In this document: positions 7,001 through 29,568 of the stretch, one piece after another
Layout: each line of letters begins with the position of its first letter
How positions within the stretch are numbered: the first letter of the stretch is position 1
Assembly: GCA_963850305.1 (NCBI GenBank)
Contig: CAWKKR010000005.1
Span: 64,001-128,000, forward strand
Source: an uncultured delta proteobacterium
GTDB lineage: Bacteria; Myxococcota_A; Polyangia; Polyangiales; Polyangiaceae
Length of the DNA stretch: 64,000 bases
Reading direction: 5' to 3'
Notes under the pieces: model-generated
The model's input: only the letters and a program-made list of their open reading frames with translations
The model's database searches: none
What the model was told of the DNA's origin: nothing
Made by a program: the position numbers and the translations under genes

Positions 7001-7364
7001 CTCGAAGCTCGGCTTCGTGACTGGCTCGACACGGGGTGGTGGTCGGCGTGCCCGGATGAACGGAAACGTCGTCCACGACGACGGAAACGGAGCTGTCTTC
7101 CACGGCGGATGTCTCCAGAACCAACCCCGGTCGGAAGACCGAGGCTCCTGCCGAGCCGCTGGGCGAGCGGGGTTCGGCAGGGAGTTCTTCACATCCACAT
7201 CTAGGCAGCCCTGCCGCCGCAGGACTGATCCACGAAGCTCTTGCCCGAGCTGGCGTGGACGGGAAGCCGTGTGCTCCTGACGTTGAATGATACACACGCT
7301 TCCGTTCGTCGCAAGGGGCGAACTGCACGAGCCGTTCGAGTTCACGTTCACCAAGCATGAGCAC
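4083..7364 (-). CDS. Primase-helicase: AEP/RepB'-like primase, Zn finger, VapE/VirE P-loop helicase (start uncertain, likely ~7100)
   Basis: Primase-like YADLD, FSGNGCQVH and DDSVVNPNRLCPAAGT. Zn finger CPGC..CQHATC. VapE motifs HPVRDYL..WDG..RLD, FEGDQGIKKSS, DDYRPPYG, YLRDPTGNRRYWPI, RDQLWAEA. Confidence 0.9.
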   Translation of the reverse strand: MLMLGERELERLVQFAPCDERKRVYHSTSGAHGFPSTPARARASWISPAAAGLPRCGCEELPAEPRSPSGSAGASVFRPGLVLETSAVEDSSVSVVVDDVSVHPGTPTTTPCRASHEAELRGWLTSFLTTTRAEGIDPAKILAGSFKRQHRFLGLAEGERYELQIVEPDLKDESRRFDEQKHRFAYTDTFRGGVTLLLSAAREYGYQGLYVIPQLVNPAALSKAAPDAWHVLGSGAGTTEKDIVAFLSVYADLDTIREGGAKKVSATTTELMTSCERGIQLFGDAAEILGSANALAFLFSGNGCQVHVALDRLPVNPEVKALRTAFVQLVGVIYSDEHVVGDDSVVNPNRLCPAAGTLKRKGYNDIGLGRVHRLTGIYCSKTVERLSLKQLRHLVEGLKQKLTDEQRQRFQAAVEVGTKKGVGKRPATTTTSARSTKYQGPNPFELANTIPIRDVYAELGHDPSHPQCPGCGADDTTDFLDEKLGVQSLKCQHATCGARSWKNIDLVVTLGLHRDIDDQDARREAVNWLSGEFPGFDIPKVGKGKKARKAEVESKLTENPKFIDDMIETCSPTSRDDELREIVEVILSTDAGPAATSMKALTKKTGIPKTKLLALTKEENDGSGDVSPMDEDYSDAEWRTKLHRTKKGAVQSTFSNAVTVVSHDPRWAGRLAWCEFTSRIVLMAAAPWPNETSSSAPFTTMDAWVEPDDHRLVDYLQRFWGITVTPKQAYQAARLVADKWKVHPVRDYLGGLVWDGTHRLDTWFTTYLGCSDGIYTRKVGPWTLMQAVKRIFEPGCQADYVPVFEGDQGIKKSSAVMALCPDPSWVSDTMITIGTKDAMVALRGRWFVELPEASSLLKAEHATSKAFFTSKTDDYRPPYGMHNVQVPRQVMFFATINPEGGYLRDPTGNRRYWPIACGETGKIDIEGIERDRDQLWAEAVHRYREHERCYPDQEDEHVLFRNVQQQRGEQDPWHEAIENSVADLNEVTVSFILNEVLSIETSKQETRDQNRIIKVLTSLGWCFSTVGKVTENDPARTSAPKRKSVRIYARKEPIEDAILFKPGMTSADLHCLRHPITHDDHADTIHRLLEEAV

Positions 7365-7370
7365 CTCGGT

Positions 7371-7582
7371 GTCTACGGCGTCTACGGCACGTGCCGGAGG
7401 GCGTAGACACTCGGAGCGGCATCTTTTCCGGCCTTGTCTACATGTCTACGGTGTCTACGGGATCTTGATCACATGTAGAGAATCCGTGTTTTCGATCTCG
7501 TTGATCGGATCGATGACGATGAAGAAAGAGATCGATCCCTGGATCTCTTGAAACCGGCGTAGACGGCGTAGACACGTAGACA
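7371..7582. repeat. Iteron-like GTCTAC/GTAGAC cluster (putative origin)
   Basis: GTCTAC at 7371, 7380, 7436, 7444, 7453 and GTAGAC at 7403, 7559, 7568, 7576, with a GATC-rich spacer. Confidence 0.75.
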
Positions 7583-7782: not shown

Positions 7783-8049
7783 GTGATGACCACGCCGTCC
7801 GAGATCGTTGCCACCGCCGCCGTCCTCGGTGACCCGAGGAGGTTCCTGATGCTGCTCTACCTCGACGAGCCCCTCCCCATCGGGAAGCTCGCCTGCAAGG
7901 CCAACGTGAGCCCGGCAACGGCCTCGTACCACGTCGGCCGCCTCGTAGAGGTCGGGCTCGTCCATGTTCACCGTCGTGGACGACAGCACGTCGTCCGTCG
8001 TGTTCCCGCACGATGGATGTCGATCTGGCGAGCGTTCGGATCGGGATGA
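7783..8049 (+). CDS. ArsR/SmtB family HTH regulator
   Basis: AVLGDPRRFLML..PIGKLACKANVSPATASYHVGRLVEVGLV..RRGRQH. Confidence 0.85.
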   Translation: MMTTPSEIVATAAVLGDPRRFLMLLYLDEPLPIGKLACKANVSPATASYHVGRLVEVGLVHVHRRGRQHVVRRVPARWMSIWRAFGSG

Positions 8050-8104
8050 CGGGGAATCGAACTCCCGGCGGTTGATCCGAACCCGGCTCGTCTGTATCAA
8101 GTGT

Positions 8105-8786
8105 ATGGACACCTTCGGAACGGCCCGAGCGAAACGAGCTGCGATCTACGTCCGAACCAGCACTTCGAGGGATCAGTCCCCGGCCATGCAGCTCGACGAC
8201 CTCCGCCGTCTTGCCGACCAGCGAGGCTGGACGATCACCCGGGAGTACATGGACGTCGGCGTCTCCGGCACCACCGACAAGCGGCCCGAGCTGGACAAGC
8301 TCATGGCCGACATCCGGAAGGGCGGCAAGAACGCTCCGGGCATCGTCGTCGTCTGGAGGTTCGACAGGTTCGCCCAATCCGTCCGGCACCTCGTCACGGC
8401 CCTCGAAGATTTCCGGGTTCGAGGGATCGAGTTCGTCTCCATGAAGGACGGGATCGACACGAGCACCCCGACGGGAAGGTTCACGTTCCATCTCGTGGCC
8501 GCCCTGGCCGAGATGGAGGCCGAGGTGATCCGATTCCCGAGTCCAGGCCGGAGTCGATGCAGCTCGTCGTCGTGGAGCACGTCTCGGCCGTCCTCGTGCT
8601 CACGTTGACGTAGCTCGTGCTCGTGAGCTTCTGGCCCGCCCAGGGACCTCTCGTACCTCCGTGGCCCGGAAGCTCGGCGTTGGCACGAGCACCCTCTCAC
8701 GAGCCCTCCGAGGGGCAGGAATGGGCCGACCAGAATCCCCCTCGGAAGCCGTGATCGAAACCGGCATGATCTCTCGGGTGGCGTGA
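8105..8786 (+). CDS. Serine recombinase (resolvase/invertase) with C-terminal HTH; frameshift near 8534
   Basis: AAIYVRTST..Q, DVGVSG, VWRFDRFAQS, IDTSTPTGR..LAEME. The shifted frame gives SRVQAGVDAARRRGARLGRP..SVARKLGVGTSTLSR, stop at 8786. Confidence 0.88.
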
Positions 8787-9055: not shown

Positions 9056-9496
9056 TCAGCGACGGAGCAGGAACGGAAGCACGAAAAAAAGGAACACCAG
9101 CAGCTCGATCAGAAGCGTAACTCCTGAGATCGGTCTGGGCGTCGAACCATTGTGCGCTCGCCGACGAAACAGCTTGGGCACCTGTGACCCCGCCATGCAC
9201 GAAGCGGCTCCGAGAAAGAGGACCACACCCATGGACCGACTCGGCTCGTGGAAGAACCAGCCGAGCCCAGCGACCAGACCCACGACGGAACCAATGTTCA
9301 AGGCGGCGGCAGACGAAGCGACCGAGATCGCACCGCCGATGCCAAGGCCGATTGCAACAGAAGCCAGGTAACGCCAGGTGAGCGGATACGGACTCCAGGC
9401 AATGGCGAGCAAGGCGGCGTTCAACAATACGACGATCACGAGGACCGGTTGGCCGGAAGGTTGGCCCGATCCGCCGTCTCGGTTCCCGTCGGACAC
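9056..9496 (-). CDS. Multi-pass membrane protein, candidate immunity protein
   Basis: GTG start 1 nt after the stop of the teneurin-like gene. 4-5 hydrophobic segments. Confidence 0.6.
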   Translation of the reverse strand: MSDGNRDGGSGQPSGQPVLVIVVLLNAALLAIAWSPYPLTWRYLASVAIGLGIGGAISVASSAAALNIGSVVGLVAGLGWFFHEPSRSMGVVLFLGAASCMAGSQVPKLFRRRAHNGSTPRPISGVTLLIELLVFLFFVLPFLLRR

Positions 9497-9497
9497 G

Positions 9498-12400
9498 TCA
9501 GAAACCCTGTCCGCCGCCCGAGGCTCCACCAGATCCACCGAGAGAACCTGTCCCCTCGGCCCCACATTGCGGACCTGGGGGAGGCGGACTCGGGGGAGGA
9601 TCGCAGCTCGGAGCGAGTCCGCAGAGGGCACAGATCGGGACGCACCCCAGCCGAATGGCATTGCACGCCCCGGCACCCTCACCCAAAGAAAGCGCGATGC
9701 ATCTGGCCACCGCCACAGACGACGCCTTCCAGCAAGCAGCACAAGCCGCACAGAGATCGTCGGTGGGACAGAGTCCCGACCGATCCGCACCGTTGACGGG
9801 GTCGTCACCTCGATAAGCGTACCGGTTCAAGCTCCGGAGCGGATCTTTCGTAGTCCACCGGCCAGTCTCCGGCTCGTAGTCTCTCGCTGAAAATCGAACG
9901 AGGCCACTGTCCGGATCGTAGAGCCCCGCCGCAAAGCCAAGCGGCTGAAAGCCAGGACTCGTATCGCCAGCAACCCTGCCCCATTCATCAACATCGAACC
10001 GCTCGGCAACCGCTCCCGTTGCCACGTTCACTACCAATCGGGGTGTCCCGATGTGATCGGTTGCGATTCGGTACAGATTTCCGGCTTGCACCATGTAGGC
10101 CGGGGCATCCAACGGAATCCGCGAGTCGGCACTTCGAAGCCTTTCCGTGAGGATGTCCGGCACACGGAGCCCCAGCCTTGTGAGCACCGTCTTGACGCTG
10201 CTCTCCTCACTCCCCGTCCCATCCGCCCAAACAAACCTGCTCACGACGTTCCCCGCCCCATCCAGTCTCCGCGACGATCCTGAGATCGTCGGCGTAGAGC
10301 CATCCCTTCACGAGCACGCCGTCGATCTTCTTCCCGACCCGCCTCCCCATGCCGTCGATGACGTAATCGATCGCCCTCCCATCTGGCAGATCGACGTGCG
10401 TCAGATTCCCGAGCGCGTCGTACGTATACGTCGTCGTCTGCCCCGAGGACGTATCCGTCTTCGTCCGGAGCGCGCCGTCCGTCGTGTACGTGTACGTCAG
10501 TGTCCCGTACGTGAGCAGCCGGTCCTGCGCGTCGTATGTCCCCGCGCTGGTCGTCCCGTGCTCGACGTCGGTGAACAGCGTCCGATTGCCGTTGGCGTCG
10601 TACGCATACGTCCTGACCGCCGCGCCATTCTCGGCGACGCTGATGAGGCGTCCGACCTGGTCGTACCCGTACTCGGTGACGGTGGTCGTGCCCTGGATGG
10701 TCTCGGTTTTCTGCTGAATGCGTCCGAGCGCATCGCGCGCGTACGAGACGCTGTACAAGTCGCTCGACCCGAACTTCGCGTCGTAGGATGCGACCTCTCC
10801 AAACTGGTCGTACGTGCGGGCGTCCGTCACTGAGCCGAGCGTCGTGGTCTGGAGGCGCGGCGCAGTCGGATCGTACGTGAGCGCCATCGAACCCGCCGGT
10901 GTCGCGACGCTGGTGACGAGGCCGTCGTTGTCGTAGCCGAGGGTAGCTTTCGTCGTGGCGTCGCCGTCGATGGTCTCTGTCGCGACTCGGAGGAAATGGT
11001 CGTAGGTGCGCGCGACGCTGCCGCTCACGGCGCCGCTCCAGGTGGTGCCCGTCAGGAGCTTTCCGTCGTATGCGTAGGCGAGATTGACGCCGTACGGGCC
11101 AGTAGCGCTGGTCAGCCTGCCGGTGGTCGCGCTGTACCCGAGCGTCTCGGTGCCGGTGGGGAGGGTCACGGTCCGCATGCGGCCCGACGAATCGTAGCCC
11201 ATCGTGACGGCGGAGCCATCGGCACGATCGACTTCCGTCGGATGGCCGTCGAGATCGTAGGCGTAGCTCGTCGTGGCAGGGCCGTTGCCGTCTCCGGTGT
11301 CGGGGGCGGTGTAGCTCTCGAGTCGGTTGTCCGGCGTGTACGAGAAGAGGTGCGAGGGTTTGCCGGGCGGCGTGACGCTCGTGAGGTTGCCGAGAGCGTC
11401 GTAACCGAAGCCGACGACCGTCCCGTCGGCGCGGTGGTGGGCGGTGACGCGCCCACGGCGTCGTGGTCGTAGGTTTCGGTCTGGCCGAGGGCGTCGGTGA
11501 CGGAGGCGAGGTTGCCGTCGAGAGTCGTAGGCGTTGGTGGTGGTGCGGGTGTCTTGAGTGATGGCCTGGAGATGGCCTCGGGGGTCGTAGAAGAAGTCGA
11601 CGGGAGCGAGGCCAGCAGTCGTGACTTCCAGTGGACGACCCTGTCCGTCCACCGCGGTTGTCGTGATGCGGCCGGCCGCGGACGTTGCCGTCTCTGTCTT
11701 CGATGGTCCGGTAAACGCCGCCACGCTCTGAAGGCCGTTGATCGCCGAACTGTCGGAGTAGCTCTGGAGGTTGAATGGATCGCTGTTGACGGTCGTCACG
11801 GATTGCGCGTCCGCGGTTGCGAGGGTGACGCCGGATGGCGTCGTGAGCGTGGTGCTGGTGGCGATGGGTCCGACCATGCCCCAGCGCGCGGAGGCGCCGA
11901 GTACGGCGGTCGTCGTCGTGCCGTCCGGGACGGTCGTGGTGCTGGTCTGCGTGGACACGTGACGCTGCCGGACGATGGGGAGGCCGTCGTCGATGACGTT
12001 GGTGTCGACGAGATCGCCAGTCGGAAGCGTCTCGGTGGAATAGGTGGCGGTGACGCCGAGCGTGGTCTGGCGCGTCACGGTGAAGCCGCTGCTGTCGGTG
12101 GTGCGGGTGAGGTTTTTGACGACGCCAGCGGGGGATTGGTCCCGAATGATATAGCCGTTGGGGTCCCAGTCGAATTGGTGGACGCCGCCGCGAGCGTCTT
12201 GCATCTGGGTCATCAGGCCATCTGGCGTGTAGGTAAACCGGCTCACGGCGCCAGCCGGGTCGGTGACTTGAGAGAGGAATCCATCGTCATCGAGCGCCAG
12301 GGAGGTGGTGTGGCCGTACGGGCCGACGATGGTGTTCGGGTTGCCGGCGAGATCGCGCTGAATGGTAGTCTGGTTGCCGTCGCCGTCGGTCACACTGACG

Positions 12401-15400
12401 AGATGGCCGTCGGAATCGTATCCGAAGCTGAACAAGGTGCCGCCCGTGAGGGCGCTCCGAGTGCGAAGATGGCGGCCGTTGGCGTCGAATTCGTACACCT
12501 GCTCGCCATCCTCGGAAGGGATGAGAATGTCCGCGGAGAGGACACCTCCCGGCAGCGGCGGATGGATGCGGCGGATCGTGTCATCCTCGAGACTCAGGAG
12601 GAGCGAGCCATCGGGAGCGAGGGTGAAGCTGAAAAAATGTCCGATGGGCGCCCGCCCTGCCGGAACGCTGTCCGGTACCGCCGCGTGCGCCACGTCCCCG
12701 GTACCGACCAGCGTGTTGATGATCCCACTCGGCGAGACGGTTCGAAGACGGAAGTTTCCCCAGTCTTCGAAATAGAGGGTGCCGTCGGGCCCTATCTCCA
12801 GGTGCTCCGGCAAAGCCAATAGGGCCTCGGTCGCGGGCCCACCATCTCCAGAGTACCCAGGCCCGGCAGCCTGGTACACGCCAGCAACGATGGAGACCTT
12901 CCCATCCGGGGACAGGCGTCCTATCAAGGCGCGCGCACTCTGAGTGAAGTACACGCTTCCGTCCGCGCCGACGGCGAGCCCGCCGTCGAGGTTGCTGTCG
13001 TTGACGACATTCGACAGGTTCGGGACCAGCGTACGGATCGTGCCGTCACAGGCGATCTGCCTCAAACCGCCTTGCACGAGCCCATCTTGGTCAAGCACGT
13101 AGACCGAGCAGTCCGGACCGGAAGCGACGGCCACGATGCTGCAGAAAGTCGCCGCCGTGGCAGGTCCCCCATCGCCGGAGTAACAGCCGTTGCTCGGGAG
13201 TTTGGGATCGACGACGCCGCCAGCGATGGTAATCATGGTTCCGTCCGCCTGAAGCCGGCGAAGGCGCGGAATGGGGACGCTCGTGGTTCTTGAGTTGACT
13301 TGGTCGGCCACCAGCAGAGTATCAGCCTGCTCACCGGTCAGAAGTGCAGAACCACAAACCCCGGCGACGCTCGCTGACGCGCCGTTGGGAGGCAGGCTGC
13401 CCGCGTCGCAGGACGCTCCTGCGGAAGGCATGATTAGCGAAACCAGTCCTGATTGAGCGTCGATCCGGTGCACGCCGGTCGCGCTACTGAAGTAGACGTC
13501 GCCGTTCGCCATCGCGACAACGGACGTGGGGGCCATCTCGGAGTAAAGCCGAGGGACACCATCGGTTACGCCTGCACCAAAGTACGGTATCCCCGCAAAC
13601 CGTTCCATGACGGCTCCGGCGGCGGCGACGTTTCGAGTCGTTCCATCTCCCTTGTACAACGTCGGTCCGTACGGGTCGTACCAGTGGTGGACGTCGACCG
13701 TCCACCCAGCGACGTCGGTTTCGCGGGCGTCCTCGGTTCCGAGGGTCATGTTCGTCGTCGTCCAGATGATGTATTCGCTGCGCGCCCGGTCCGTCGTGAG
13801 CGAGACGTTCGGCTGGGCCGAATACTGCGCGAATGCGTTGGCGACATCGGACGGCGGAGCGTAAACGGCGGGGACGATCCGCCCGACGCGCACGACAGCC
13901 GGTTGACTTCCAGTGAGCACCCGTCCGTACGCATCCTGGCCATCCCACTCGAAGACGTAGTTCTGGTTGGGTTCGGCCGGGAAGCTCTGCTGGAACGTGC
14001 GCCCCGCGACATCGACCTCCAGATCGAATCCGACCGTCGTGCTGCCAATCTCGGAGCCCGATATCGGAATGTTGATCGTGCGCGCAATCCGCCGCCCCGG
14101 AACTCGGTCGCTGCGGTAGGTCAGGTTCATGTTCGTTCCGGCGACATGGAGCGATTCGCCCATCGTCTGGTCTTGCATGCTGAGACTGGAGCCCGGCTCG
14201 TTGCACATGGCCCCAGTGCCTCCCCCTCCGGGGCCAGGGCCGGGCGAGCCGCCGGGGCCGCCGCCGCTGCCGGTCCCACCGTTTCCAGGAGGATCGTCAG
14301 GTTCGTAGGGCCAGTTCGCGTCCGCGCCGGTCCAATGCGACAGTGGCGCTCGCCAGAGCTGAGTGCCCGGCGCGTACGTCTGCGCGAGCTGTTGCCGCTC
14401 CGCGTCCGTGATCCCCATCGTGGCCAGCTCCGCGTCGCTCGCCTGTGAGCCGGATCCATCGACGCTCAGATCGGCGAGCCCGTTCATCACTGCAAGGATT
14501 TGGATGACTACACCGTTTGGCTGCGGCACCCAGCACCCGGTGATGCGATCGTATGTCCCGATGGGCACGATGGTGCCGACAGGGAAATGGAGAAAATTCT
14601 CCACGTAGAGGGGCACGGCGCGGTCGAAGGTTACCGTCGTGGCGCCCGCGGCAACGGCCTCGTCGGCGGTCAGCTCGACGGCGTAGGTATACCCTGAAGC
14701 TGCAGGCAGGACCCCCGGCATCCTCTCCGGACCCTCCGGGCCCACGGTAAACTCGGTCGCGTGCACGGTGATCGAGTCGAGCGGTTGCGAGGTGCCGTCT
14801 GGGAGCACCATCGTGGCATTCGTTCCCGGTTCGAAGAAGACGCGCGCTTGCCGCGTTCCGTCGTCATCGGACACCGGACTTCCCGCCGCGACCTGCAAGT
14901 CTGGGTTTCCGAGCGTGACGACCGTAGCCACCGGGTCTACCGCAACCAACACAACGTCCTCGAGCACGACCGAATCGTTCCAAGGGAGCGAAACCTTTCG
15001 CTGCGCGGTCAGGAATCCAGGGTTCGAGAACTGGACGATCGATTGTCCCCCGCCATTCACGACGAGGTCGTACATGCCGTCGGCGCGCGTGCGCGTGCCG
15101 CCGAGTTCCGGATGCCCTTCGATCTGTACGGCAACCCCGGATAGAGGCGCGTTGTTGGCGTCGAGCACGCGGCCTCGGACTACCGCAGCGCGGACAGGGT
15201 TGATCGTACCGGGCAGAACGCCCGTCTGGATCGGGTGATCGCCCGAGATGAGGAACGAGACGCGATCGAGGAGCGAAAGATTGGTGGTCAGGTTGACCGG
15301 CGGCGCGATCGTTGCCGGATCGGGCGGCACGACGGGGACGCAGGCGTCGGCACCGTTACAATACGCCGACGGGCCGCAGACAGTCCCGTTCGCGGCCAGG

Positions 15401-18400
15401 GGATGCGAGACGCCTCGAAGTGGGTCGCAGAGGTCCTGCGTACACGGATCTCCGTCGTCCGTGGCGACAGGTGTGCCGGATTGGCACTGACCGGCAGCGC
15501 TGCACACTTCGTTCCCGTTGCAGACATTGCCGTCCGAGCAGGAGCTGCCCGCGGGCAAAACGACGTGCGTCACTCCCGCGTTCGGATCGCAGGCGTCCGT
15601 GGTGCACGGATTGCCGTCGTCGATCGCGACGGGTTGACCCGTGCACGCGCCGCCTGCGCACGCGTCGCTCGTCGTGCACGCGTTGGCGTCGGAGCACGAG
15701 GTGCCGTCTGCAATCGCGACGTGGACGACGCCGGTCGCGGGATTGCACGAGTCGATTGTGCAGGGGTTCCCGTCGTTCGAGTCGAGCGGTGTGCCGGCCC
15801 GGCAATAGCCAGTGCCGCTGCACGTCTCGGTTCCGTTGCACTGGTTCGCATCGGCGCAGCTCGTGCCAGCTGCGGACGGAGAATGCAGGACGCCCTTGAT
15901 GGGATCGCAAGAATCGTCGGTGCACAGATTGTTGTCGGACAGGATGGGGGCCGTGCCGGGCAAACAGAGGCCGTGCGAGTCACAGATCTCGGCGCCGTTG
16001 CAGAAGTTACCGTCCGAGCAGGACGCGCCGGCAGGTGCGAGCGTGTGCGTCACGCCGAGCGCCGGATCACAGCTATCCACCGTGCACGGATCCCCGTCAT
16101 CGATGACCGGCGCGCTACCCGCCAGACAATCGCCGCTCGCGTCGCAAAGTTCCAGGCCGTTGCAGGCGTTGTCGTCGGAGCACGAAGTTCCGGCCGCTGC
16201 GAGTACGTGAGTGACCGCTCCCGATGCGGGGGCGCAAGCATCGGTCGTACAGGGATTTCCGTCGTCGACGTCGAGGGGCGTACCCGAGCAAAGGCCGCTC
16301 GTGCAGCGTTCGTGTGTCGTGCAGAAGTTGCCGTCGCTACACGCCGAGCCATCCGGGAACGGCGTGTGCGTGACGCCCTTGACGGGATCGCAAGCGTCCG
16401 CCGTACACGGATTGCCGTCGTCGACAGGGGTGGCTTCGGCGCTCGCCTGGCAGACGCCGGACTCACAGGTTTCGGTGCCGTTGCAGAGGTTGTTGTCGGG
16501 ACAGGCGGTGCCATCAGGAACGGCAACGTGCGTGACGTTGCCGCTGACGGGGTCGCACGCGTCGGCCGTGCACGGGTTGCCGTCGTCGATGCTGAGCGGG
16601 GTGCCGGCGGTGCAGGCGCCGTCGGCGCAGAGTTCGACGCCGTTGCAAGCATCGCTATCGGGACACGGGGTGCCGTCGGGGAGAGCACCGCTTCCCGAAG
16701 TGGTGCTGGTGCAGAAGGTGCCCGTGCACGAGCCGGAATTGGCGCGCGTTACGCACTGGGGCGGGAAGGAGGCGCCGGCACCCACGGTGCAAGTGCCGTT
16801 GCAGGTGCCGTCGGTGCTGGCACAAGGCGCCCCCGTGTCGGCGAGAGCGATAGCACGGGAGGCAGGGTCGCAACTATCGGCGGTGCAGTTGCAGGAAACG
16901 GTGGTGCACGGGTTGTCGTCTTCAGCGCAAACCTGCTGGCACTGGAAGAGAGCGTCGTCCTGCGACGAGCAGGCGCCGAAGATCATGTCGCACGACGTGA
17001 ACTGCGACGCCGCCGCGCAGCCCAGGAAGGACGTCGACTGCGTCGCGCACGCCCCCGTCGCAAGGTTACAGTCGCGCAGGCACTCCGAGGGATCCACGCA
17101 GCCCGCCGCTGCGAGTCCCTGACAGGCTGTCAGACACGCGGAACCCGTAGCGGGCACGCAGGCGCCGGTGGCGTCGCAGACGGAGTGGTCGTTGCAAGGA
17201 AGCCCTGGAGTGATGACGTGCGTCGGCACTCCGGAGGCGTCACAGGCATCGACGGTGCATGGGTTTCCGTCGGGAGCGGGAACGCAATGCCCGGCGGTGC
17301 ACGTCAGCGCGCGCGCGAGAGAGTCTTCGCAGCCGTTCGCAGTGAAGAGCGGAATCGAATGGCCTGCGACACTTAAGGTCTGTCCGGGGAAGCATTCCCA
17401 TTGCGGGTTCTGCCCCGCGCAGGTGAAGTATGAACTCCAGTCATCCGCGCAGCCCGGGGCTTCGGTCGCTTGCACGCAAGTCGCCAGACAGTTCGCCGGT
17501 GCGCAGCCCGCTTGGGTGAGTGACGCGCAGAGGTCGACGCACGGGACCGCTCCCGGACCTGCTTCGGCGCAGACGAAGGCGCGGTCCGACTGCTGCTCAC
17601 AGCCGTTGACGGCGAAGTTGAGCTCCCCGGTGCATTCCGTCCGAGGCGCGGGGCCCGCGCAAGCGTCGAGCGCCGCGAAGACGCTGTCGCAACCGGTCGC
17701 GGCAGAGCACACTTCGGACACGCAGTCCTGCTGGGTGAGCCCGAGGCATCCAGATCCGCTGAGGTCGGAGCAGAAGCTCGGACAACCGGAGAGCTCAGTA
17801 CAGGTGCCATCGCCATCGCAAGCCGCGTCGCTGCCGCACGCGGTCCCCACGCAAGCGGGCGCGTGGGTCGTACCCGTGGTCGGATCGCAGGTGTCGATGG
17901 TGCACGGGTTGCCGTCGTCGACCGCGACGCACCCACCGCTCGTCGTGCAGGTCGCGAGAATCGCTGAACGCGCCGTCGCATCCGGCAACGGTGAAGGGCG
18001 CCGGACCTCCGGGCGTGCACGTGACAGCCGGCGTCACGCCCGCGCATTGGTTCAATTCTTGTAGCGTGCTGCCGCACGCGCCGGACGCGCTCGCCGAGCA
18101 ATACTGGGCATCGCACGCAGCCTGAGTGAGGCCCGGCACGCATCCCGCCGCGACGACGGCGGAGCAGATCCCATCGCACCCCCCTATGTCGACACACGCG
18201 CCCGTGGCGTCGCAGACACGATTGTCGAGGCAGGGACTGCCGGTCGCAGCGGGTGTATGCGTCGTCGCTCCGCTGGTCGGATCGCAGGTATCGACGGTGC
18301 ACGGGTTGCCGTCGTCGGCAGGCGTGCAAGCGCCGGTCGCGCATGCGAAGGTTTGCTGGACCTGCGTCGCGCAGCCATTCACCGAGAAGGACGCGACGCC

Positions 18401-21400
18401 GCCCGACGCGCAGGTCACTTGTGGCGCCGAGCCGGCGCATTGAAGTAGTGCGCCGAGGCTGCTCGAGCACGGCGCGCTCGCCGCGGGACCGACGCAGGTG
18501 TTGAAGCAATCGGTCTCGGATGAACAGCCGGCGGCGGCGACGGCCGTGCAGAGATCGGCGCAGCCGGTAGCGCCGGGCCCGCCGTCTTCGCACGCGGCGA
18601 GCTCGAGCGCGCTCGTGTCGCAGCCTTGAATCGTGTATCCGAGCGGGCCGCCACACGCAACGGCGGGCGTCGACCCGGCGCACGTCGTCAATGCCGTCAG
18701 CGCGCTGCCGCAACTCGATGCTGTGGAGCCCTGGCAGAGCGACGCTTCGCAGTCGGACTCCGAGAAAACGCCGGGGCAGCCCGCGGCCGCAATCGCCGTG
18801 CAGGTGGTCTTGCAGCCGGGGACGTTCTTGCAGTCGCCGTCGCCGTCGCAGGTCGCGTTGTCGCCGCAGGACGTGCCGGCCGCGACTGGTAAATGCTGCG
18901 GGCCGTTCACGGGGTCGCACGTGTCGAGCGTGCAAGGGTTCGCGTCGCCGAAGACCGGGCACGGATTTCCTTCGGCGTCGCACGCAAGGTTCGCCTGGAG
19001 CTGCTGTTCGCACCCGACCACCGTGAACGGCGCGCTCCCCCCAGTCGTGCACGTCACGGTCGGGGTCGAGCCCGTGCAAGCCGTCAGGGCCGCGAACTCG
19101 GTCTGACAGGTGCCGCTTGCTGGGAGCGTGGCGCACTCGCCGAGGCACTGGTCCGTCATGAGGCCGCAGTTCGCGACCGCTTCCGCCGAGCACAGAATCC
19201 GCGCAGCCCGGAACGTCGCCGCCGAGCACCTGGCACGCATGCACGGCCGCGGCTTCACGCTCGCAGCCGGTGACCGAGAACCCCAGATCGCCGCTGCAAG
19301 AGATCGCGGGGGAAGTTCCGGCACAGGCGACGAGCGCCGCGATGTCGTCCCCGCATTGCACGGCGGTCTGCTGGGAGTCGAGCACGTCTTCGCAGTCGAG
19401 CCCGGTCGTCGAGCATCCGGCGCTCCCGACGGCGTTGCACAGCGTTGCCCCGGTCGCGACGCGCCCTTCTTTTTGACATGCGGTCAGGGCGAATTGCTTC
19501 GCGTCGCAACCGGTCACCGTGAACCCGGAGCTCCCGCCGCACGTTACTGTCGGCGAGGAGCCCGCACAGGAAACGGAATCCGAGAGCGGCGCGGCGCAGG
19601 TGGCGTCTTCGGTCCCAGGACAGAGCGAACTCTGGCATCCGTTCGCGTCGAGACCGGCGCCGCAGTTTGCGGACGCGACCGCCGAGCACAAGGACGAGCA
19701 CCCCGCCTGCACCTGGCAGATGCCTGAAGCATCGCACGTGCGGCCGAGGCCACACGCCGTGCCCGAAGGCAGGGGCGCGTGCGTGATGCCGTGCGCCGGG
19801 TCGCACGCATCGGCGGTACAAGGGTTACCATCGTCCGTGTTCACAGCGCCGAGCGAGAGGCATTCGCCGGTCAGATCGCAGAACTCGCTCCCGTTGCACG
19901 GGTTACCGTCCGAGCACGGCGCCCCATTCGCAAGTGGCGCGTGCATCGCGCCCGTCGCGGGATCGCACGAGTCCGCCGTGCAAGGATTGCCGTCGTCGAT
20001 GGCTACGGGAGTGCCGAGTTCGCACGTGCCGTTCGCATCGCAGAGTTCCAGGCCGTTGCACGCGTTGCCGTCGGAGCACGACGTCCCGGCGGCGACAGGC
20101 ACGTGGGCGACTCCGATCACGGGGTCGCACGAATCCGCGGTGCAGGGGTTTCCATCATCGATGACCGGCGGCGTCCCGGCCGTACAAGTGCCGGTTGCGC
20201 TGCACGTCTCGGAGCCATTGCAGGCATTGCCGTCGGAGCAAGAGGTTCCGAAGGAGACTGGCGTGTGCGTGACGCCGGTCGCCGGATCGCAGCTGTCGAC
20301 CGTGCATGGATTGCCGTCGTCAACGACGGGTGGCGTCCCAGCGGTACAAGTGCCCGTTGCGTTGCACGTCTCGGAGCCGTTACAGGCGTTTCCGTCGGAG
20401 CAAGAGGTCCCGGCGGACACAGGGGTGTGGGTGACTCCGACGGTCATGTCGCAAGCGTCCACGGTGCAGGGATTTGCGTCATCTACCGTGGGCGGCGTAC
20501 CGGCGCCGCACTGACCCGTCGTACCGCACGTTTCTGCTCCGTTGCAGGCGTTGCCATCCGAGCACGACGTGCCCGTAGCGACAGGCGCGTGCGCGCAGGC
20601 CCCCGACGCACACGTGTCTACTGTGCACGGGTTCGAATCGTCGCAAGACGTGGCGCCGCAGGTCGTGGACGAGAAACCGTCTTGGAATGTCGTCACCGAC
20701 CCCGTGCCCACGTCGACATCGCGAGCGAAGAACGCGCCCGTCAGGACGTCGCCCGTACCGACTACCAACGTGCCGTTCGCCACCAACACCAGCGCTTGGA
20801 CCTGGTTCCCGTCGCCGAACGCTGCCGCCTTCGGTGTCGCCGAAAGGGTGCCGCTTGTTCCGTTGATGCCCGATACCTCGACCTGGATACCGCTCGCACT
20901 GAGTGCTGGCGACGCCGGGCCGAGGAACGCGCCGCTGCCCATGCTCCACCGACCTGCCACGTGGATCTGCACGGCGCCCAGAGCCTGGACGCGAGCCCCC
21001 GCGCCAACCGTGACGCTTGCGACCTCGTAGAGCCCTGGTCCGAGTCCAAGAGTACTGCCAGCGTTCACCGTGACGTCTGCGTAGCGTCCTGGTGACGCGA
21101 CGACGGTCCCGCTTCCGACCATCAAGTTCGAGGTTCCCGCCGTTACCGCTGAGACCGCGGGCAATGCCGGTAGCTGCACCAGCGCTGTCACTCCACCGTG
21201 AATCGAGCCGGCGGCGGAAGAAAACTGAGCGGTCTGAACGTCACCCACGACCGCCCCTGATCCGAGGTGGACTGAATTCGCGATGAGATTTTGCGTCTTA
21301 TCGACGACAGCCCCTGCGAGCGTATCGATCGAGACGCCACCTGACAGGAAGGGCCCCGCGCCTGCACCGAGCGCCCCGATGTCGCCCGCGTGGAGGACGC

Positions 21401-21533
21401 TCCCCGATTGAAGGCGTACGCTGTTCGACGCTTCGATGACGAAGTCCGACGTCTTCGGAAAGCACGCGCACATCGGCGCACTTGGCCGACGTTCAGCGCT
21501 CGGTAGTTGCGCAGTTGCCCGGTCATCGGGCAC
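9498..21533 (-). CDS. Giant teneurin-like YD/RHS protein (~4000 aa), split by apparent indels near 19200, 17960, 11520/11455 and 10260
   Basis: Joined from ORFs 17373..21533, 17795..19324, 10207..17988 and 9498..10244. Contains DDGNPCTxDxC repeats, teneurin-type RAAVVRGRVLD..TRADGMYDLVVNGGG, NHL repeats (YSGDGGPAT), YD repeats and an RHS core (TDHIGTPRL, RDYEPETGRWTTKDP, DPVNGADRSGL). Confidence 0.88.
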
Positions 21534-21715
21534 TACCGGTCACTTCCGTCCAACGAGGACAATCGGCGCCGTCGCACGCCCGAACTAAGCGAGCGATCTC
21601 CTTGTCCGGACCGGGTCGGCGGCGGCTTCGGGAACGGTGAGTGCCGCAAATGGGACTTCTCTGTCTCTCTCAGTACCGTTTTTGGTACTTCGATCGGTGA
21701 TGAGGGTCGGCAAGA

Positions 21716-22125
21716 TGGCCTACCGCGTCCACGACATCGTGACGGCGGCGAGAGTGAGAATCCTGTCGTTCAACGCCTGGACGTCAGACGATCCCAAAAA
21801 AACACGCCACCCCAACCGCAACTACTCGAAATCATGCGGCCCGGTTTTCGACGAAGAGCGGGAGTTAGCCGATCGGCTGACTCCACTCCAGGTCGTCGCG
21901 CGACACCCGTTCGAGATCGACTCCACCGTTGGCTTCGTCATTGAGGCTCGGCGTGGCTCTCGTCTGCGGTCGCCGGTCAGGATCCGAGATGGCCGACACG
22001 TGCGTCCCGAAGGTCAACGTCGCCAAGGAGCTGGCGGAGATCTCCAAGGACGTCACGAACCCCCCGGGGCGCTGATCCGCGACGCCCCCTGTCACGGTGA
22101 GCCCAAGCCCCCCTTCATAGAGTAG
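21716..22125 (+). CDS. Hypothetical protein (possibly frameshifted)
   Basis: ORF divergent from the giant gene. No recognisable motif. Confidence 0.3.
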
Positions 22126-23193: not shown

Positions 23194-23625
23194 TTAGAGT
23201 TCACGAGGGCATGAAGGCACGGTGGGCTTCTGAAACGGGCGCGCCTCCTGCTCGGTGTTCTGTGCGTGGGGTGCGCGCTTCAGCGGAGCGAAGAGGCGTG
23301 TGGGGTCGAGTACCGCTTCCGTGGCGCCGAGGGGTACGGGGAGACGAGGTGCGTCGATCCCGTGATCTCCTTCCGCCGCGGTGGCCCTTGTCTTTGCGAC
23401 CACCTGGATGGACGGTGGCGTGGTCGCACGCCTGGTACTCCCGCCCACCTCGGTGGTCGTCGTGCACGCGGAGTTCCCGGCTACGGTGGCCGGCGACTCC
23501 GGCACCACGCTCTTCCTCCACGACGAGTGCGGGCCGAGGATGCCATGGAATCGTAGTAGCGGATGACGCGGTGGAGGAATCAAAGCCGAAAGGCGCGCGA
23601 GCGGCTCGACCGGATCCATCACGCG
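23194..23625 (-). pseudogene. IS91-family (Y2) transposase C-terminal remnant
   Basis: MDPVEPLARLSALIPPPRHPLLRFHGILGPHSSWRKSVVP matches the IS91/IS801-type transposase C-terminus. Confidence 0.75.
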
Positions 23626-23889
23626 ATGGCCGCACGTCTCGATAGTTTGCAAGTGCTGCATCGAGCAGATCTTGCAGCAGCGGCGCGGCGTTGTTCTTGA
23701 CTCTGCACGCATGGTGAGATTGGCCGTTGCTGAGCTCGAGTTTGCCGACACTCGCTTCCCGCACGTGCTCGCCGCGGCGCTGGATGGGAAGGGGGCGGTG
23801 CGCGCGTGCAGGGATTCGAGCCATTTTCGGGACCGTGCGCCTGCCGTCGATCGGGGAAATGGATGCGAGCAGCAGACGGTAGGATACTC

Positions 23890-24786
23890 CCCGGTCAACG
23901 ACTGGATCGCGCGCCGGGCCAGCGATCAGCGTCTTCGCCCTGGTCACATCGAGCGCGCGTCGCGAGTGGTACGGCTCGCGGGGTCGAACGGCGCGGCCGA
24001 GACGGAACACCTTCTCTCGCGGGTCATGGACGGCACGCTCGCGGCCGAGGGCGCGCGCCCCGGCGAGGGCCGGTCCGCTCACGACGCCGTTCGCTACGAT
24101 CTCGGTCTGATCAACGCCAGCGTCGACCTCGAGAGCGTCGTTCAAGGGCTGGAGAAGAACCGCGCGGGCACGCTCTGCCTGCACGGACCTCCGGGTACAG
24201 GGAAGACCGCTTTCGTCACGCACCTTGCCGAACGGCTCGGCGTTCCTCTCGTCACGCGGCGCGCGTCGGACCTTCTCGGCATGTACCTCGGCCAGAGTGA
24301 GCAGAACCTTGCCCGCATGTTCCGGGAGGCAGAGGCGCAGGGCGCGCTCCTGTTCCTGGACGAGGCGGACGGCTTTCTTCAGGATCGTTCGCGCGCAACT
24401 CGCACGTGGGAGGTGACCCAGGTCAACGAGCTGCTCGTCGGCATCGAGCGCTTCCCCGGCATCTTCGCGTGCGCAACGAACCTCATGGACACGCTCGACC
24501 AAGCCGTCTTCCGTCGCTTCGCGCTGAAGATCCGCTTCGAGCCCCTGAGCAGCGATGGAAGCTGCTCGCGTCGGTCCTCGACGGCATGGGCGTCACGCTG
24601 CAAACGGGAGACGACGCGCGCCGCGTGCGCGCCGAGCTGGGACGTCTCGACTCGCTCACGCCGGGGGATTTCGCGGCGGTCGTTCGGCGCGTGCGGATTC
24701 TTGGGGGCGCACCCGACGCCTCCGCTCTCGTGCGCCGGGTGAAGCCAGGGGCGGGGAAGCGGAGGATGGGATTCGGAGAGTCATGA
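23890..24786 (+). pseudogene. AAA+ ATPase, C-terminal half only; frameshift near 24548
   Basis: Walker A HGPPGTGKT, Walker B LFLDEAD, ATN..LDQAVFRRF. The other frame gives LTPGDF..RRMGF. No credible N-terminus. Confidence 0.8.
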
Positions 24787-29124: not shown

Positions 29125-29568
29125 GATTCGTCATCTTGACGGCTCCGCTCGGCGTCCGTCAAACAGTGGCTCTGGGATGCCGTCTTTCGCGTTTGCGTGG
29201 CGACTACGTCGTCCGACGCGGGATCGGGTCGCGCGCTGCTGAACGTAATCCCTGAGAATCTGGATGGGTGCAGCAGGTGGCCGCGACAAATCTATGTGGC
29301 GGAACCGTGATCGTCGGCGGCGGAGAAAGCTCCCTGCCATGCGCGGCGCGTGCGCCGCCGCTTCGCGATCACGATGACGTCGAGCACGCATGCTTGCGAC
29401 CCGTGGACAATTCGTGGCAAAAACCCACGAAAAGCCACGCTTGTTACCACGCGTGAGCCACGCATCGAGCCACGTTTAAGCCTCGCGCATTACCTCGAAT
29501 TTCGATGTCGAACGGGCGCCGTAGAGGCTCTGGATCGCCCCGTTCTGCGTCATCTAGGCAATCAAAAC

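Follow-up and report, generated by a model that had tools for sequence, protein, structure and literature searches.

A probable giant teneurin-like protein with a long cysteine-rich stalk from an uncultured Polyangiaceae bacterium

Bacterial teneurin-like proteins (TLPs) were described as a class in 2026 by Raoelijaona et al. (Nat Commun, PMC13018210), together with a cryo-EM structure of a Bacillus TLP. According to that paper TLPs are frequent in Myxococcota, Dicty_CTDC is named among their N-terminal domains, and the TIP insertion is placed between the TTR domain and the FN-plug, TTR and TIP occurring together in 96% of TLPs. The protein from Bacillus inaquosorum (BiTLP; 9ifo, 9pt5) is 2,237 aa long, with the domains in the order TTR, TIP, FN-plug, NHL, YD shell and Rhs core, and its N-terminus consists of Ig-like adhesion domains with a Gram-positive SPI signal. 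The animal teneurins (teneurins 1-4 and Ten-m; 6fb3, 6fay, 7bam) also carry a stalk of cysteine-rich repeats before the superfold. They are type II membrane proteins in which an intracellular domain and EGF repeats are present, and their C-terminus (ABD and Tox-GHH) is not cleaved and lies outside the shell. The Rhs effectors of type VI secretion systems (T6SS), such as Tse5 (8cp6) and RhsA (7q97), share the YD shell around a C-terminal toxin, the aspartyl self-cleavage core and the downstream immunity gene. However, their N-termini are of the PAAR or VgrG-binding kind, TTR, FN-plug and NHL are missing from them, and their sequence similarity to the protein described here is limited to shell segments.

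Here we describe a locus in a stretch of 64,000 nucleotides (the window; assembly GCA_963850305.1, contig CAWKKR010000005.1, forward-strand positions 64,001 to 128,000) from an uncultured member of the Polyangiaceae. It very probably encodes a giant bacterial TLP from a single gene, which would be an Rhs/YD-type polymorphic toxin working without a type VI secretion system. An earlier note, made from the letters of the window, had read four minus-strand ORFs as one gene, and the parts that it named are all present, with Pfam matches to Dicty_CTDC, TTR_TEN1-4, FN-plug, TEN_NHL, TEN_YD-shell and RHS_repeat. The high novelty that it attached to the gene is not supported: the TLP class, its abundance in Myxococcota and the Dicty_CTDC N-termini were all published in 2026 (PMC13018210), and the gene therefore adds a member to a known class. 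The features are collected in Table 1.

Table 1. Features of the TLP locus, in positions of the window, with the evidence for each.
Feature	Position	Strand	Evidence and remarks
Whole TLP gene, read-through	9498..21533	-	~4,010 codons including stop 9498-9500; four frames
ORF pieces, head to tail, differing frames	17373..21533, 17795..19483, 10207..18033, 9498..10307	-	ORF lists
Beta-solenoid module, residues ~23-300	20634..21467	-	AF2; without Pfam model
Stalk part 1, six tandem Dicty_CTDC-type units of ~54 aa	19704..20642	-	PF00526, E 7e-34, six stretches
Stalk part 2, nine ~80-aa ten-Cys modules with interspersed single CTDC units	16900..19703	-	copies aligned
Stalk part 3, eight tandem Dicty_CTDC-type units	15295..16587	-	PF00526, E 3e-35, ten stretches in ORF
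TTR domain	14947..15201	-	PF25020 TTR_TEN1-4, E 5.1e-26, full-length 2-86/86
TIP-like insertion, between TTR and FN-plug	14224..14946	-	homology to solved TLP
FN-plug	13834..14211	-	PF24329, E 5.3e-6, 27.0 bits, just under cut-off 27.8
NHL beta-propeller, approximate limits	12634..13686	-	PF25021 TEN_NHL, E 6.3e-14, 52.2 bits, cut-off 27.1
YD shell and Rhs core, to predicted ...ADRSGL cleavage motif (9771-9788)	9771..12633	-	PF25023, PF05593
CTD, candidate toxin cargo	9501..9770	-	90 aa, 11 Cys, hydrophobic centre
Candidate immunity gene, 146 aa, several hydrophobic spans	9056..9496	-	ORF and hydropathy
Break 1	19194..19199	-	one extra base at GGATTCTG; frames compared
Break 2	17957..17962	-	one extra base at CGATTCTC; frames compared
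Breaks 3 and 4	~11521 and ~11452 (11452..11521)	-	compensating +1/-1 pair inside long ORF
Break 5	10265..10269	-	one extra base against paralogous C8 fragment (DNA alignment); homologue join 10267/10268

The conceptual protein has ~4,010 residues, of which 234 are cysteine. Its N-terminal half consists of a beta-solenoid module followed by a cysteine-rich stalk of ~1,770 aa, and its C-terminal half runs TTR, TIP, FN-plug, NHL, YD shell, Rhs core and a 90-aa tail, an order identical to that of BiTLP over the shared domains. Two homologues, P0002 and P0003, are each encoded by one unbroken ORF, of 2,991 and 3,253 aa, and show 48-52% identity to it over the stretch that begins with the last CTDC units and extends through the Rhs core. 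P0002 (the G001 ORF, which NCBI names 'LamG-like jellyroll fold domain-containing protein, Polyangiaceae bacterium') is a homologue from the same genus. The joins between the ORFs are bridged by such homologues: residue 2654 of P0002 ends one tblastn match at 10267 and opens the next at 10268, and the alignment with P0075, a metagenome TLP, begins at 21488. When the four pieces are read through, with an X placed at each break, all six correct-frame segments are free of stops. These results bear out the reading of one gene. The neighbours of the locus are mobile-element genes (VapE-like, resolvase and transposase).

By sequence, the superfold is of the teneurin type. The segment beginning RAAVVRGRVLD, which had been likened to the domain opening the teneurin superfold, does belong to a teneurin-type domain; this is TTR_TEN1-4, aligning to residues 534-642 of teneurin-3 in a search of PDB sequences, and it sits before both TIP and FN-plug rather than being the plug. 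The TIP is assigned by homology to the solved protein, because it has no Pfam model: one continuous match, of query residues 2-573 to residues 364-935 of the 9ifo chain, covers TTR, TIP and FN-plug together. For the FN-plug segment the match has an E of 1.1e-19 against 9ifo and 1.8e-9 against teneurin-2. The FN-plug contains the motif C-N-E-P-G/S (14188-14205; the slash marks the cut), which aligns to C719-N-K-E-G723/S724 of the solved TLP, for which cleavage of the FN-plug has been reported (PMC13018210), and self-cleavage between Gly and Ser is predicted from this conserved motif. The YD shell is strongly matched by PF25023 (E 2e-25, 89.5 bits against a cut-off of 50, and a further match at 2.8e-9) and by PF05593 RHS_repeat (E 6e-32). 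In the Rhs core the Arg, both Asp and the Leu of the cleavage site all align to those of the solved TLP. However, the two catalytic Asp are spaced by 20 residues, compared with 24 in BiTLP and, among 112 parsed relatives, 24 in 96 and 23 in 14; the loop between them is thus four residues shorter, and C-terminal self-cleavage may be impaired.

It is clear from the search of PDB sequences where the nearest solved relatives lie. The entries 9ifo and 9pt5, both named 'Teneurin-like protein', come first (E=0, 1014 bits), followed by the animal teneurins at 1e-73 to 1e-55, with T6SS Rhs proteins at 1e-17 or weaker and no Tc chain among the 29 matches at E<=1e-3. At least 1,121 large proteins share the teneurin-like region, and the same four Pfam families occur in almost all of them. 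The YD shell and Rhs core are of course common to the TLP gene and to T6SS-delivered Rhs effectors and BC-type components of Tc toxins, and could suggest an ordinary member of one of these families. Such an identity is hardly tenable, given that TTR, FN-plug and NHL are present here and absent from those families, that Pfam finds no PAAR, DUF6531 or VgrG domain in the protein and no Tc-specific one (SpvB, TcdB mid N/C), and that the whole genome, which is 94.8% complete, gives no match to PAAR (PF05488) or to VgrG / Phage_GPD (PF05954). The proposal in the earlier note, which saw no PAAR or VgrG in the window, that this is not a T6SS Rhs is supported. Equally improbable is that each of the four ORFs is a gene of its own, with products that join into an assembly or work independently. 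The gene caller did split the locus, and a 2,504-aa product of this assembly is in the database; but breaks 1 and 2 cut domain repeats and single modules in mid-unit, every join is crossed by continuous homologues, and the same-genus homologue P0002 is one open frame.

The tail of 90 aa falls within the range of 67-268 aa seen in relatives (62 of 120 parsed), and its last ~30 residues are first Pro-rich and then Gly-rich. It has no match in Pfam, toxin families included. Over 70 aa it shares 34% identity with the CTD of an orphan module that lies on another contig of the genome, C8. The candidate immunity ORF has a GTG start 2 nt past the TLP stop, and the CTD on C8 likewise precedes a multi-pass membrane ORF, the ATG of which overlaps the CTD stop. 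A downstream immunity gene is reported for almost all TLPs (PMC13018210). BiTLP also has a downstream gene and a short hydrophobic tail, of 92 aa, which is unrelated in sequence to the tail here. The tail of P0002 is likewise short and rich in cysteine (77 aa, 12 Cys).

The N-terminal module is predicted by AF2 to be all-beta, with a mean pLDDT of 91.5 and a pTM of 0.87. It belongs to a family with 1,174 representative clusters at E<=1e-3, but Pfam returns nothing for it, even at E<=10. An identity as DUF7305 / ice-binding-like (Atlas, 0.89) was rejected on the same ground, there being no Pfam match at E<=10, and the sole likeness that stands is a weak resemblance of the predicted fold to ice-binding proteins (Foldseek, best E 1.7e-4, TM 0.33-0.49). 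The module had been called an adhesin head. This description is not upheld: the module is common, it directly follows a signal peptide or lipobox in relatives, and Pfam matches it to no adhesin family. If the protein is anchored by its N-terminus, the beta-solenoid would adjoin the membrane and the teneurin superfold would occupy the opposite end. No signal peptide or lipobox precedes the module in any frame over the ~250 nt upstream of 21533, while in P0075 the same beta-solenoid follows a clear lipobox signal. A protein with 234 cysteines would need to be exported despite this absence. According to PMC13018210, Gram-negative TLPs carry lipoprotein (SPII) signals, but some TLPs have no predicted export signal, and the signal is therefore not a strict criterion for a TLP.

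The four-ORF appearance of the gene is caused by five single-base indels, rather than three as had been thought, the additional two being a +1/-1 pair within the long ORF. The 22 codons between this pair read as basic junk in frame, but in the shifted frame 14 of 22 residues are identical to P0002. A scan of the genome for frame switches, based on codon score, gave 368 candidates in 6.26 Mb, of which 115 are strong. Among the 14 strongest candidates that were checked, metH, uvrA and bamA are clearly broken up between frames; the scan does overcount, because two of the 14 are ordinary neighbouring genes. Of the 115 strong sites, 33 have the hexamer GATTCT or its complement no more than 30 nt away, where 1.9 would be expected, and GGATTCTG and CGATTCTC, the exact contexts of breaks 1 and 2, are among the 7-mers most enriched at frame switches. 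Since GATTCT marks frameshifts genome-wide, bamA and metH included, these two breaks are probably systematic errors of the assembly. It follows that apparent pseudogenes in this assembly should not be taken at face value, because indels linked to GATTCT split even essential genes. The contexts of the breaks at 11521, 11452 and 10267, by contrast, are not enriched at other frame switches of the assembly, and these three may be errors or real mutations. The earlier advice to polish the indels is sound for two of the five breaks. Programmed ribosomal frameshifting at GATTCT was ruled out, because the hexamer occupies different codon phases at different sites (with slashes as codon boundaries, GAT/TCT in the TLP gene and G/ATT/CT in metH and bamA). 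Collapse of the stalk repeats was also rejected as a cause, as TRF shows no tandem repeat at the DNA level in 15000-21000, and so was cross-mapping from a second full TLP, as the genome shows only C-terminal orphan fragments, on C8.

Because three indels lack the error signature, and because the local density of breaks (5 in 12 kb) is well over the genome-wide candidate rate (368 in 6.26 Mb), it is conceivable that the locus is a genuine pseudogene. On this view a TLP was recently inactivated, the true lesions include the missing signal peptide, the short protease loop and at least some of the indels, and no full-length protein is made. We regard this as a serious possibility, though we incline against it. 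It would account for the three indel contexts, for the failure to find a signal peptide in any upstream frame, and for an Asp-Asp spacing not seen in any of the 112 relatives; it also agrees with the mobile-element genes that adjoin the locus, with the lack of a close orthologue among 40 relatives (the best being 49% identical), and with an indel found in the orphan fragment on C8 as well. However, two of the five breaks fit the systematic error that splits bamA and metH too, there is not one nonsense codon in ~4,010 correct-frame codons, and the 22 out-of-frame codons still encode the peptide shared with P0002. Any decay must therefore be very recent. A different doubt concerns the tail, which could be a structural element of a protein for adhesion or recognition with no toxin function, comparable to the C-terminus of an animal teneurin, which has ceased to be a toxin for delivery. 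The lack of a match to any toxin family, the small size of the tail and its Pro/Gly-rich end are all consistent with this, and a role in cell communication is left open in PMC13018210. We consider it unlikely nonetheless. The Rhs core keeps its cleavage residues, a motif that according to the same paper is absent from mammalian teneurins, and the 92-aa hydrophobic tail of the solved Bacillus TLP is toxic when exported (PMC13018210).

A related tail recurs in the orphan module on C8, and each of the two tails has its own coupled membrane ORF. A recurring tail with a coupled membrane ORF is a hallmark of toxin-immunity cassettes.

A TLP toxin at this locus could work as follows, by analogy with the published TLP model, from which the toxicity of the tail, the immunity, the display at the surface and the role of the stalk are all proposed. 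The protein would be exported and held at the cell surface through its N-terminus, with the stalk keeping the superfold far from the cell and the shell enclosing the cleaved tail. Contact with a neighbouring cell would release this tail, which would then damage the membrane of that neighbour, whereas the producer and its kin would be shielded by the downstream membrane protein. Provided that the cell carries an unbroken copy, the gene would offer a natural experiment in reach, with a contact-dependent toxin placed tens of nanometres off the cell surface.

The stalk is what chiefly distinguishes this protein from its relatives. It extends over read-through residues ~297-2066, and 215 cysteines lie within the first 2,114 residues. 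The earlier estimate of ~1900 aa of cysteine-rich repeats was right as to the nature of the stalk, although the unit list shortens it to ~1,770 aa, made up of 19 Dicty_CTDC-type units and nine ten-cysteine helical modules. Dicty_CTDC repeats are found by Pfam in three of the four ORFs, and none of the papers listed by a literature search for Dicty_CTDC in myxobacteria contained the term. P0002 and P0003 share a Dicty_CTDC stalk before the TTR domain; theirs is of ~530 aa with 7-8 CTDC matches and no ten-cysteine modules, and their N-termini carry LamG and Big_7 domains instead of the beta-solenoid. Four metagenome TLPs (P0075, P0147, P0185 and P0192) have a lipoprotein signal, beta-solenoid, CTDC repeats and superfold in that order, as here except for the signal, but with stalks of ~180-460 aa and no ten-cysteine module found. 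In length the stalk thus exceeds those of the relatives compared here 3- to 10-fold, and BiTLP has Ig-like domains at its N-terminus instead.

Likening this stalk to the EGF stalk of animal teneurins is a fair analogy, though an inferred one. The two differ in composition, with Dicty_CTDC and helical ten-cysteine repeats here in place of EGF, and the TLP has the TIP insertion and keeps the cleavage motif of the Rhs core; Pfam finds no intracellular domain, transmembrane helix, EGF, ABD or Tox-GHH family in the four pieces.

The ten-cysteine module is predicted by AF2 to form four helices and a hairpin (pLDDT 77.8). It has no Pfam model, nothing in the PDB is matched by Foldseek at E<=0.001, the ESM Atlas gives no usable match, and the best Z of 4.0 in a wide VIA-align search is not meaningful for a small helical domain. 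Word-seeded searches recovered the product of this gene alone among proteins of 1,434-4,564 aa and nothing among those of 30-1,433 aa, but missed relatives that a profile search later recovered. We suggest, as a tentative idea, that this is the longest-stalked TLP so far, and that its ~1,770-aa disulfide-rich spacer, built from Dicty_CTDC and nine undescribed ten-cysteine four-helix domains, is an invention of its own lineage.

Several things follow for the class as a whole. In Polyangiaceae-like bacteria, members of the published TLP class are confirmed to extend to ~4,000 residues. The variable part at the N-terminus need not be a handful of adhesion domains but can consist of a cysteine-rich stalk of great length, and the parallel with the EGF stalk of animal teneurins becomes sharper as a result. 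Two families that are missing from Pfam could be curated, namely the N-terminal beta-solenoid (>1,000 clusters) and the ~80-aa ten-cysteine helical module. It is worth adding that the profile of the latter matches 37 of 200 other genomes of the same order, and that outside the TLP gene small lipoproteins of that order contain the domain, either as one copy or as a pair.

The four long, consecutive minus-strand ORFs, which lie in differing frames, make up a single gene, as the earlier note had read them. The joins are spanned by alignments of three large database homologues. For P0002, from the same genus, and for P0003, the match stays in one frame between 16590 and 10267 and resumes at 10268 in the following frame, at the very residue where it broke off; that of P0075, a metagenomic teneurin-like protein (TLP), begins at 21488. 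In the ORF's own frame, a 22-codon stretch of the long ORF translates to basic junk, and the +1 frame over it gives DGNLASVTDALGQTETYDHDAV, identical to P0002 at 14 of the 22 positions, so that an indel pair (+1/-1) is placed at about 11521 and 11452. There are five single-base indels in all. The read-through, with X at each break, comes to about 4,010 residues, in keeping with the predicted size of ~4000 aa, and contains no stop in any of its six correct-frame segments.

Features of the TLP locus and of related loci (window coordinates unless prefixed; G000 is the window's own genome and C1 and C8 are contigs)
Feature	Location	Strand	Remarks
TLP ORF 1	17373..21533	-	ORF list
TLP ORF 2	17795..19483	-	ORF list
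TLP ORF 3	10207..18033	-	ORF list
TLP ORF 4	9498..10307	-	ORF list
Dicty_CTDC	three TLP pieces	-	Pfam; 6, 2 and 10 matched stretches
TTR_TEN1-4	segment quoted in the earlier note	-	Pfam E 5e-26, full length
FN-plug_TEN1-4	TLP	-	Pfam E 5e-6, 27.0 bits against a cut-off of 27.8
TEN_NHL	TLP	-	Pfam E 6e-14
TEN_YD-shell	TLP	-	Pfam E 2e-25; 2.8e-9 in last piece
RHS_repeat	TLP	-	Pfam E 6e-32
Candidate immunity ORF	2 bases past TLP stop	-	GTG start, 146 aa, several hydrophobic spans
VapE-like primase/helicase protein	4086-7445	-	1,120 aa; just downstream of immunity ORF
Serine resolvase	7949-8605	+	just downstream of immunity ORF
DDE_5 transposase	32575-33810	+	11 kb upstream
L024 (orphan modules)	G000:C8:1-6000		C8 start falls inside Rhs C-terminal fragment
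Sel1-like repeat ORF	L024:603-1757
Four-span membrane ORF	L024:3881-4384
Transposase-like ORF	L024:4751-5998
L010	C1:570763-575239		example frame-switch locus
L017	C8:86130-88938		example frame-switch locus
L018	C8:1571798-1575143		example frame-switch locus
L019	G000:C8:1752943-1756750		example frame-switch locus

The teneurin superfold is likewise present. TTR, FN-plug and NHL, together with the YD shell, are all recognised by Pfam, and the segment that had been likened to a teneurin domain is TTR. All solved structures were searched by sequence. The top match is the Bacillus 'Teneurin-like protein' (9ifo/9pt5; E=0, 1014 bits), in which TTR through FN-plug align as one stretch (query 2-573 to chain 364-935), followed by the animal teneurins (1e-73 to 1e-55); T6SS Rhs proteins are at 1e-17 or weaker, and no Tc toxin chain is among the 29 solved-structure matches. 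The FN-plug self-cleavage motif C-N-E-P-G/S aligns to C719..G723/S724 of the solved bacterial protein, and aligned counterparts also exist there for the Arg and the two Asp of the core and for the cleavage Leu; both self-cleavage sites thus appear, from the alignment, to be represented. The Asp-Asp spacing in the core is 20 residues; among the 112 relatives (of 119 examined) in which the motif was parsed, 96 have a spacing of 24 and 14 a spacing of 23. The assignment to the TLP family is correct, and the original observation is borne out. The family-defining features are present with two exceptions, the missing export signal and the atypical core loop.

The bacterial ancestry of teneurins is reportedly the subject of earlier papers (PMC5851990, PMC6425310). 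The TLP class was defined by Raoelijaona et al. (Nat Commun 2026, PMC13018210) and is therefore already in print, the present gene being a new member. According to that paper, TLPs share an invariant FN-plug/NHL/YD superfold, 96% of them have a TIP insertion, their N-terminal adhesion domains are variable, there are two self-cleavage sites, tails are polymorphic (~15 kDa on average), an immunity gene nearly always follows downstream, and over 20% of Myxococcota species have at least one TLP. The legend of its Supplementary Fig. 1c names Dicty_CTDC (CTDC) as one of the N-terminal domains, and shared 'TTR and cysteine rich domains' are mentioned in a reviewer reply. Whereas the paper describes lipoprotein signals in Gram-negative TLPs, no export signal is seen here.

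A search with the TTR-to-NHL region, in which 7,999 candidates of 1,434-4,564 aa were scored, retrieved at least 1,121 proteins (E<=0.001). Of the 119 non-self relatives listed, almost all have the four teneurin Pfam families found here and they differ widely in their N-termini; only three have CTDC. TLP matches occur in 19 of 40 related genomes, none of them a close orthologue, the best being 49% identical and from a same-genus genome. This best match is a single open frame, 2,991 aa long, that combines LamG and Big_7 with eight CTDC matches and the superfold; its product is a database protein named 'Polyangiaceae bacterium'. In a same-family genome, an open frame of >4,555 aa (L007:5836-19500 (+), on G019:C145) continues past the contig end and holds TTR, FN-plug and YD shell, then PKD domains, DUF6531 and a second RHS repeat set, and may have two shells in one protein.

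The marks that distinguish the present TLP are its size, its long stalk and an undescribed ten-cysteine module. The stalk (residues ~297 to ~2066 of the read-through) is 3 to 10 times longer than the ~180-530 aa stalks of the relatives examined, and has 19 CTDC-type units, made up of a tandem run of six, five scattered ones and a tandem run of eight; 215 cysteines fall within the first 2,114 residues. TRF detects no DNA-level tandem repeat in the stalk, so the units are old, and assembly collapse was ruled out by the same result. Among the CTDC units are nine copies of the ten-cysteine module, which is ~80 aa long; eight of its cysteines are invariant and two vary. No Pfam family matches the module and it lacks a PDB counterpart; it is predicted with moderate confidence to form four helices and a hairpin (pLDDT 77.8), and occurs in 0/269 other proteins examined, TLPs with CTDC stalks included. 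Word-seeded searches failed to pick up its relatives; a profile search found it in 37 of 200 other same-order genomes, mostly as one or two copies within an open frame of 126-500 aa. These small ORFs are an undescribed family of small secreted-domain proteins. One ORF in the window's own genome (L023:160-519 (-), G000:C8:464459-464818) encodes a predicted 119-aa lipoprotein, with a lipobox signal and a single module.

The N-terminal module (residues ~23-300) is confidently predicted to be a β-solenoid (AF2 with 26 sequences; pLDDT 91.5, pTM 0.87), and its sole fold likeness by Foldseek is a weak one to ice-binding proteins (best E 1.7e-4, TM 0.33-0.49). Exhaustive HMMER gave relatives in 1,174 representative clusters at E<=1e-3, 84 of them at E<=1e-30, and the match begins at residue 40-55 in most of the 150 listed. 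Pfam scans of 23 relatives, picked mainly by length, usually place a CTDC repeat after the module at about residue 320, with very diverse cargoes beyond (RCC1 propellers, EGF_3, non-teneurin Rhs shells and, in seven, TLP superfolds). In P0075 the module is preceded by a lipoprotein signal. Upstream of the present gene its frame is closed by a stop at 21539, and none of the frames there contains a signal-like stretch. The module would be membrane-proximal if the protein is N-terminally anchored, and the 'adhesin head' of the earlier note is therefore unsupported. A GGATTCTC site at 21757-21762 (-), ~225 nt upstream of the TLP start, does not account for the missing export signal, since no surrounding frame encodes a signal peptide. 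A search of the genome found no second copy of the module. RCC1 propellers are frequent cargo in its database relatives (P0122, P0125); the 767-aa RCC1-repeat (WD40_RLD) protein at 26830-29130 (-) is without it.

Of the 90 tail residues that follow the cleavage Leu, 11 are Cys; the centre of the tail is hydrophobic, its end is first Pro-rich and then Gly-rich, and it matches no Pfam family. For the Bacillus TLP, a hydrophobic, toxic tail of 92 aa is described (PMC13018210). Orphan Rhs C-terminal fragments form an array at the start of contig C8 in the same genome, with two orphan core-plus-tail modules in L024. One of the fragments is a mosaic, at 90% identity, of the final ~1.2 kb of the TLP shell; compared with window 10122-11321, some of its blocks are 100% identical and others have diverged, and it carries a one-base indel of its own. 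The mosaic blocks suggest recombination between the main gene and the orphans. The tail of this fragment is 34% identical to the TLP tail over 70 residues, and behind it comes a membrane ORF with four spans, the ATG of which overlaps the tail's stop. Two related tails, each with a coupled membrane ORF, would fit a toxin-immunity cassette pattern. Mobile-element genes lie on both sides of the TLP locus, and the gene may be at the edge of an integrated element.

A genome-wide codon-score scan looked for sites at which the coding signal moves to another frame of the same strand with no stop. It yielded 368 candidates, 115 of them strong, and recovered the TLP breaks at 19194-19199 and 17957-17962. 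When the 14 strongest were examined by Pfam, a single domain of metH proved to be divided between two frames (model positions 2-222 and 230-283), and uvrA and bamA were plainly split (in bamA, POTRA in one frame and Omp85 in the next); a split is probable for two tamB-like genes and several others, and two candidates are ordinary neighbouring genes. GATTCT or its complement lies <=30 nt from 33 of the 115 strong sites, against 1.9 expected, and GGATTCT, GATTCTG, CGATTCT and GATTCTC are 24- to 35-fold enriched at frame switches. At metH, bamA and tamB the extra base is located in GAT-T-CT, with GATCT read with one extra T. A ribosomal mechanism is ruled out because the codon phase of GATTCT differs from site to site. 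These frameshifts look like a systematic consensus error, so that 'pseudogenes' in this genome should be treated carefully.

The TLP gene has three GATTCT sites, two of which coincide exactly with these two breaks (GGATTCTG and CGATTCTC), making them very probably assembly errors. We conjecture for them a methylation-linked base-calling error, which would fit. The contexts of the other three indels are not enriched at other frame switches. That the gene is truly inactivated is a serious possibility, if a somewhat doubtful one: its break density far exceeds the genome-wide rate, the signal peptide is absent, the protease loop is shortened, mobile-element genes adjoin the locus and a close orthologue was not found, but ~4,010 codons contain no nonsense codon and the out-of-frame peptide is well conserved. 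Another assembly-error split may be present in the AAA ATPase gene at 23567-24739 (+), which has a candidate frame switch near 24556 and GATTCT at 24696-24701.
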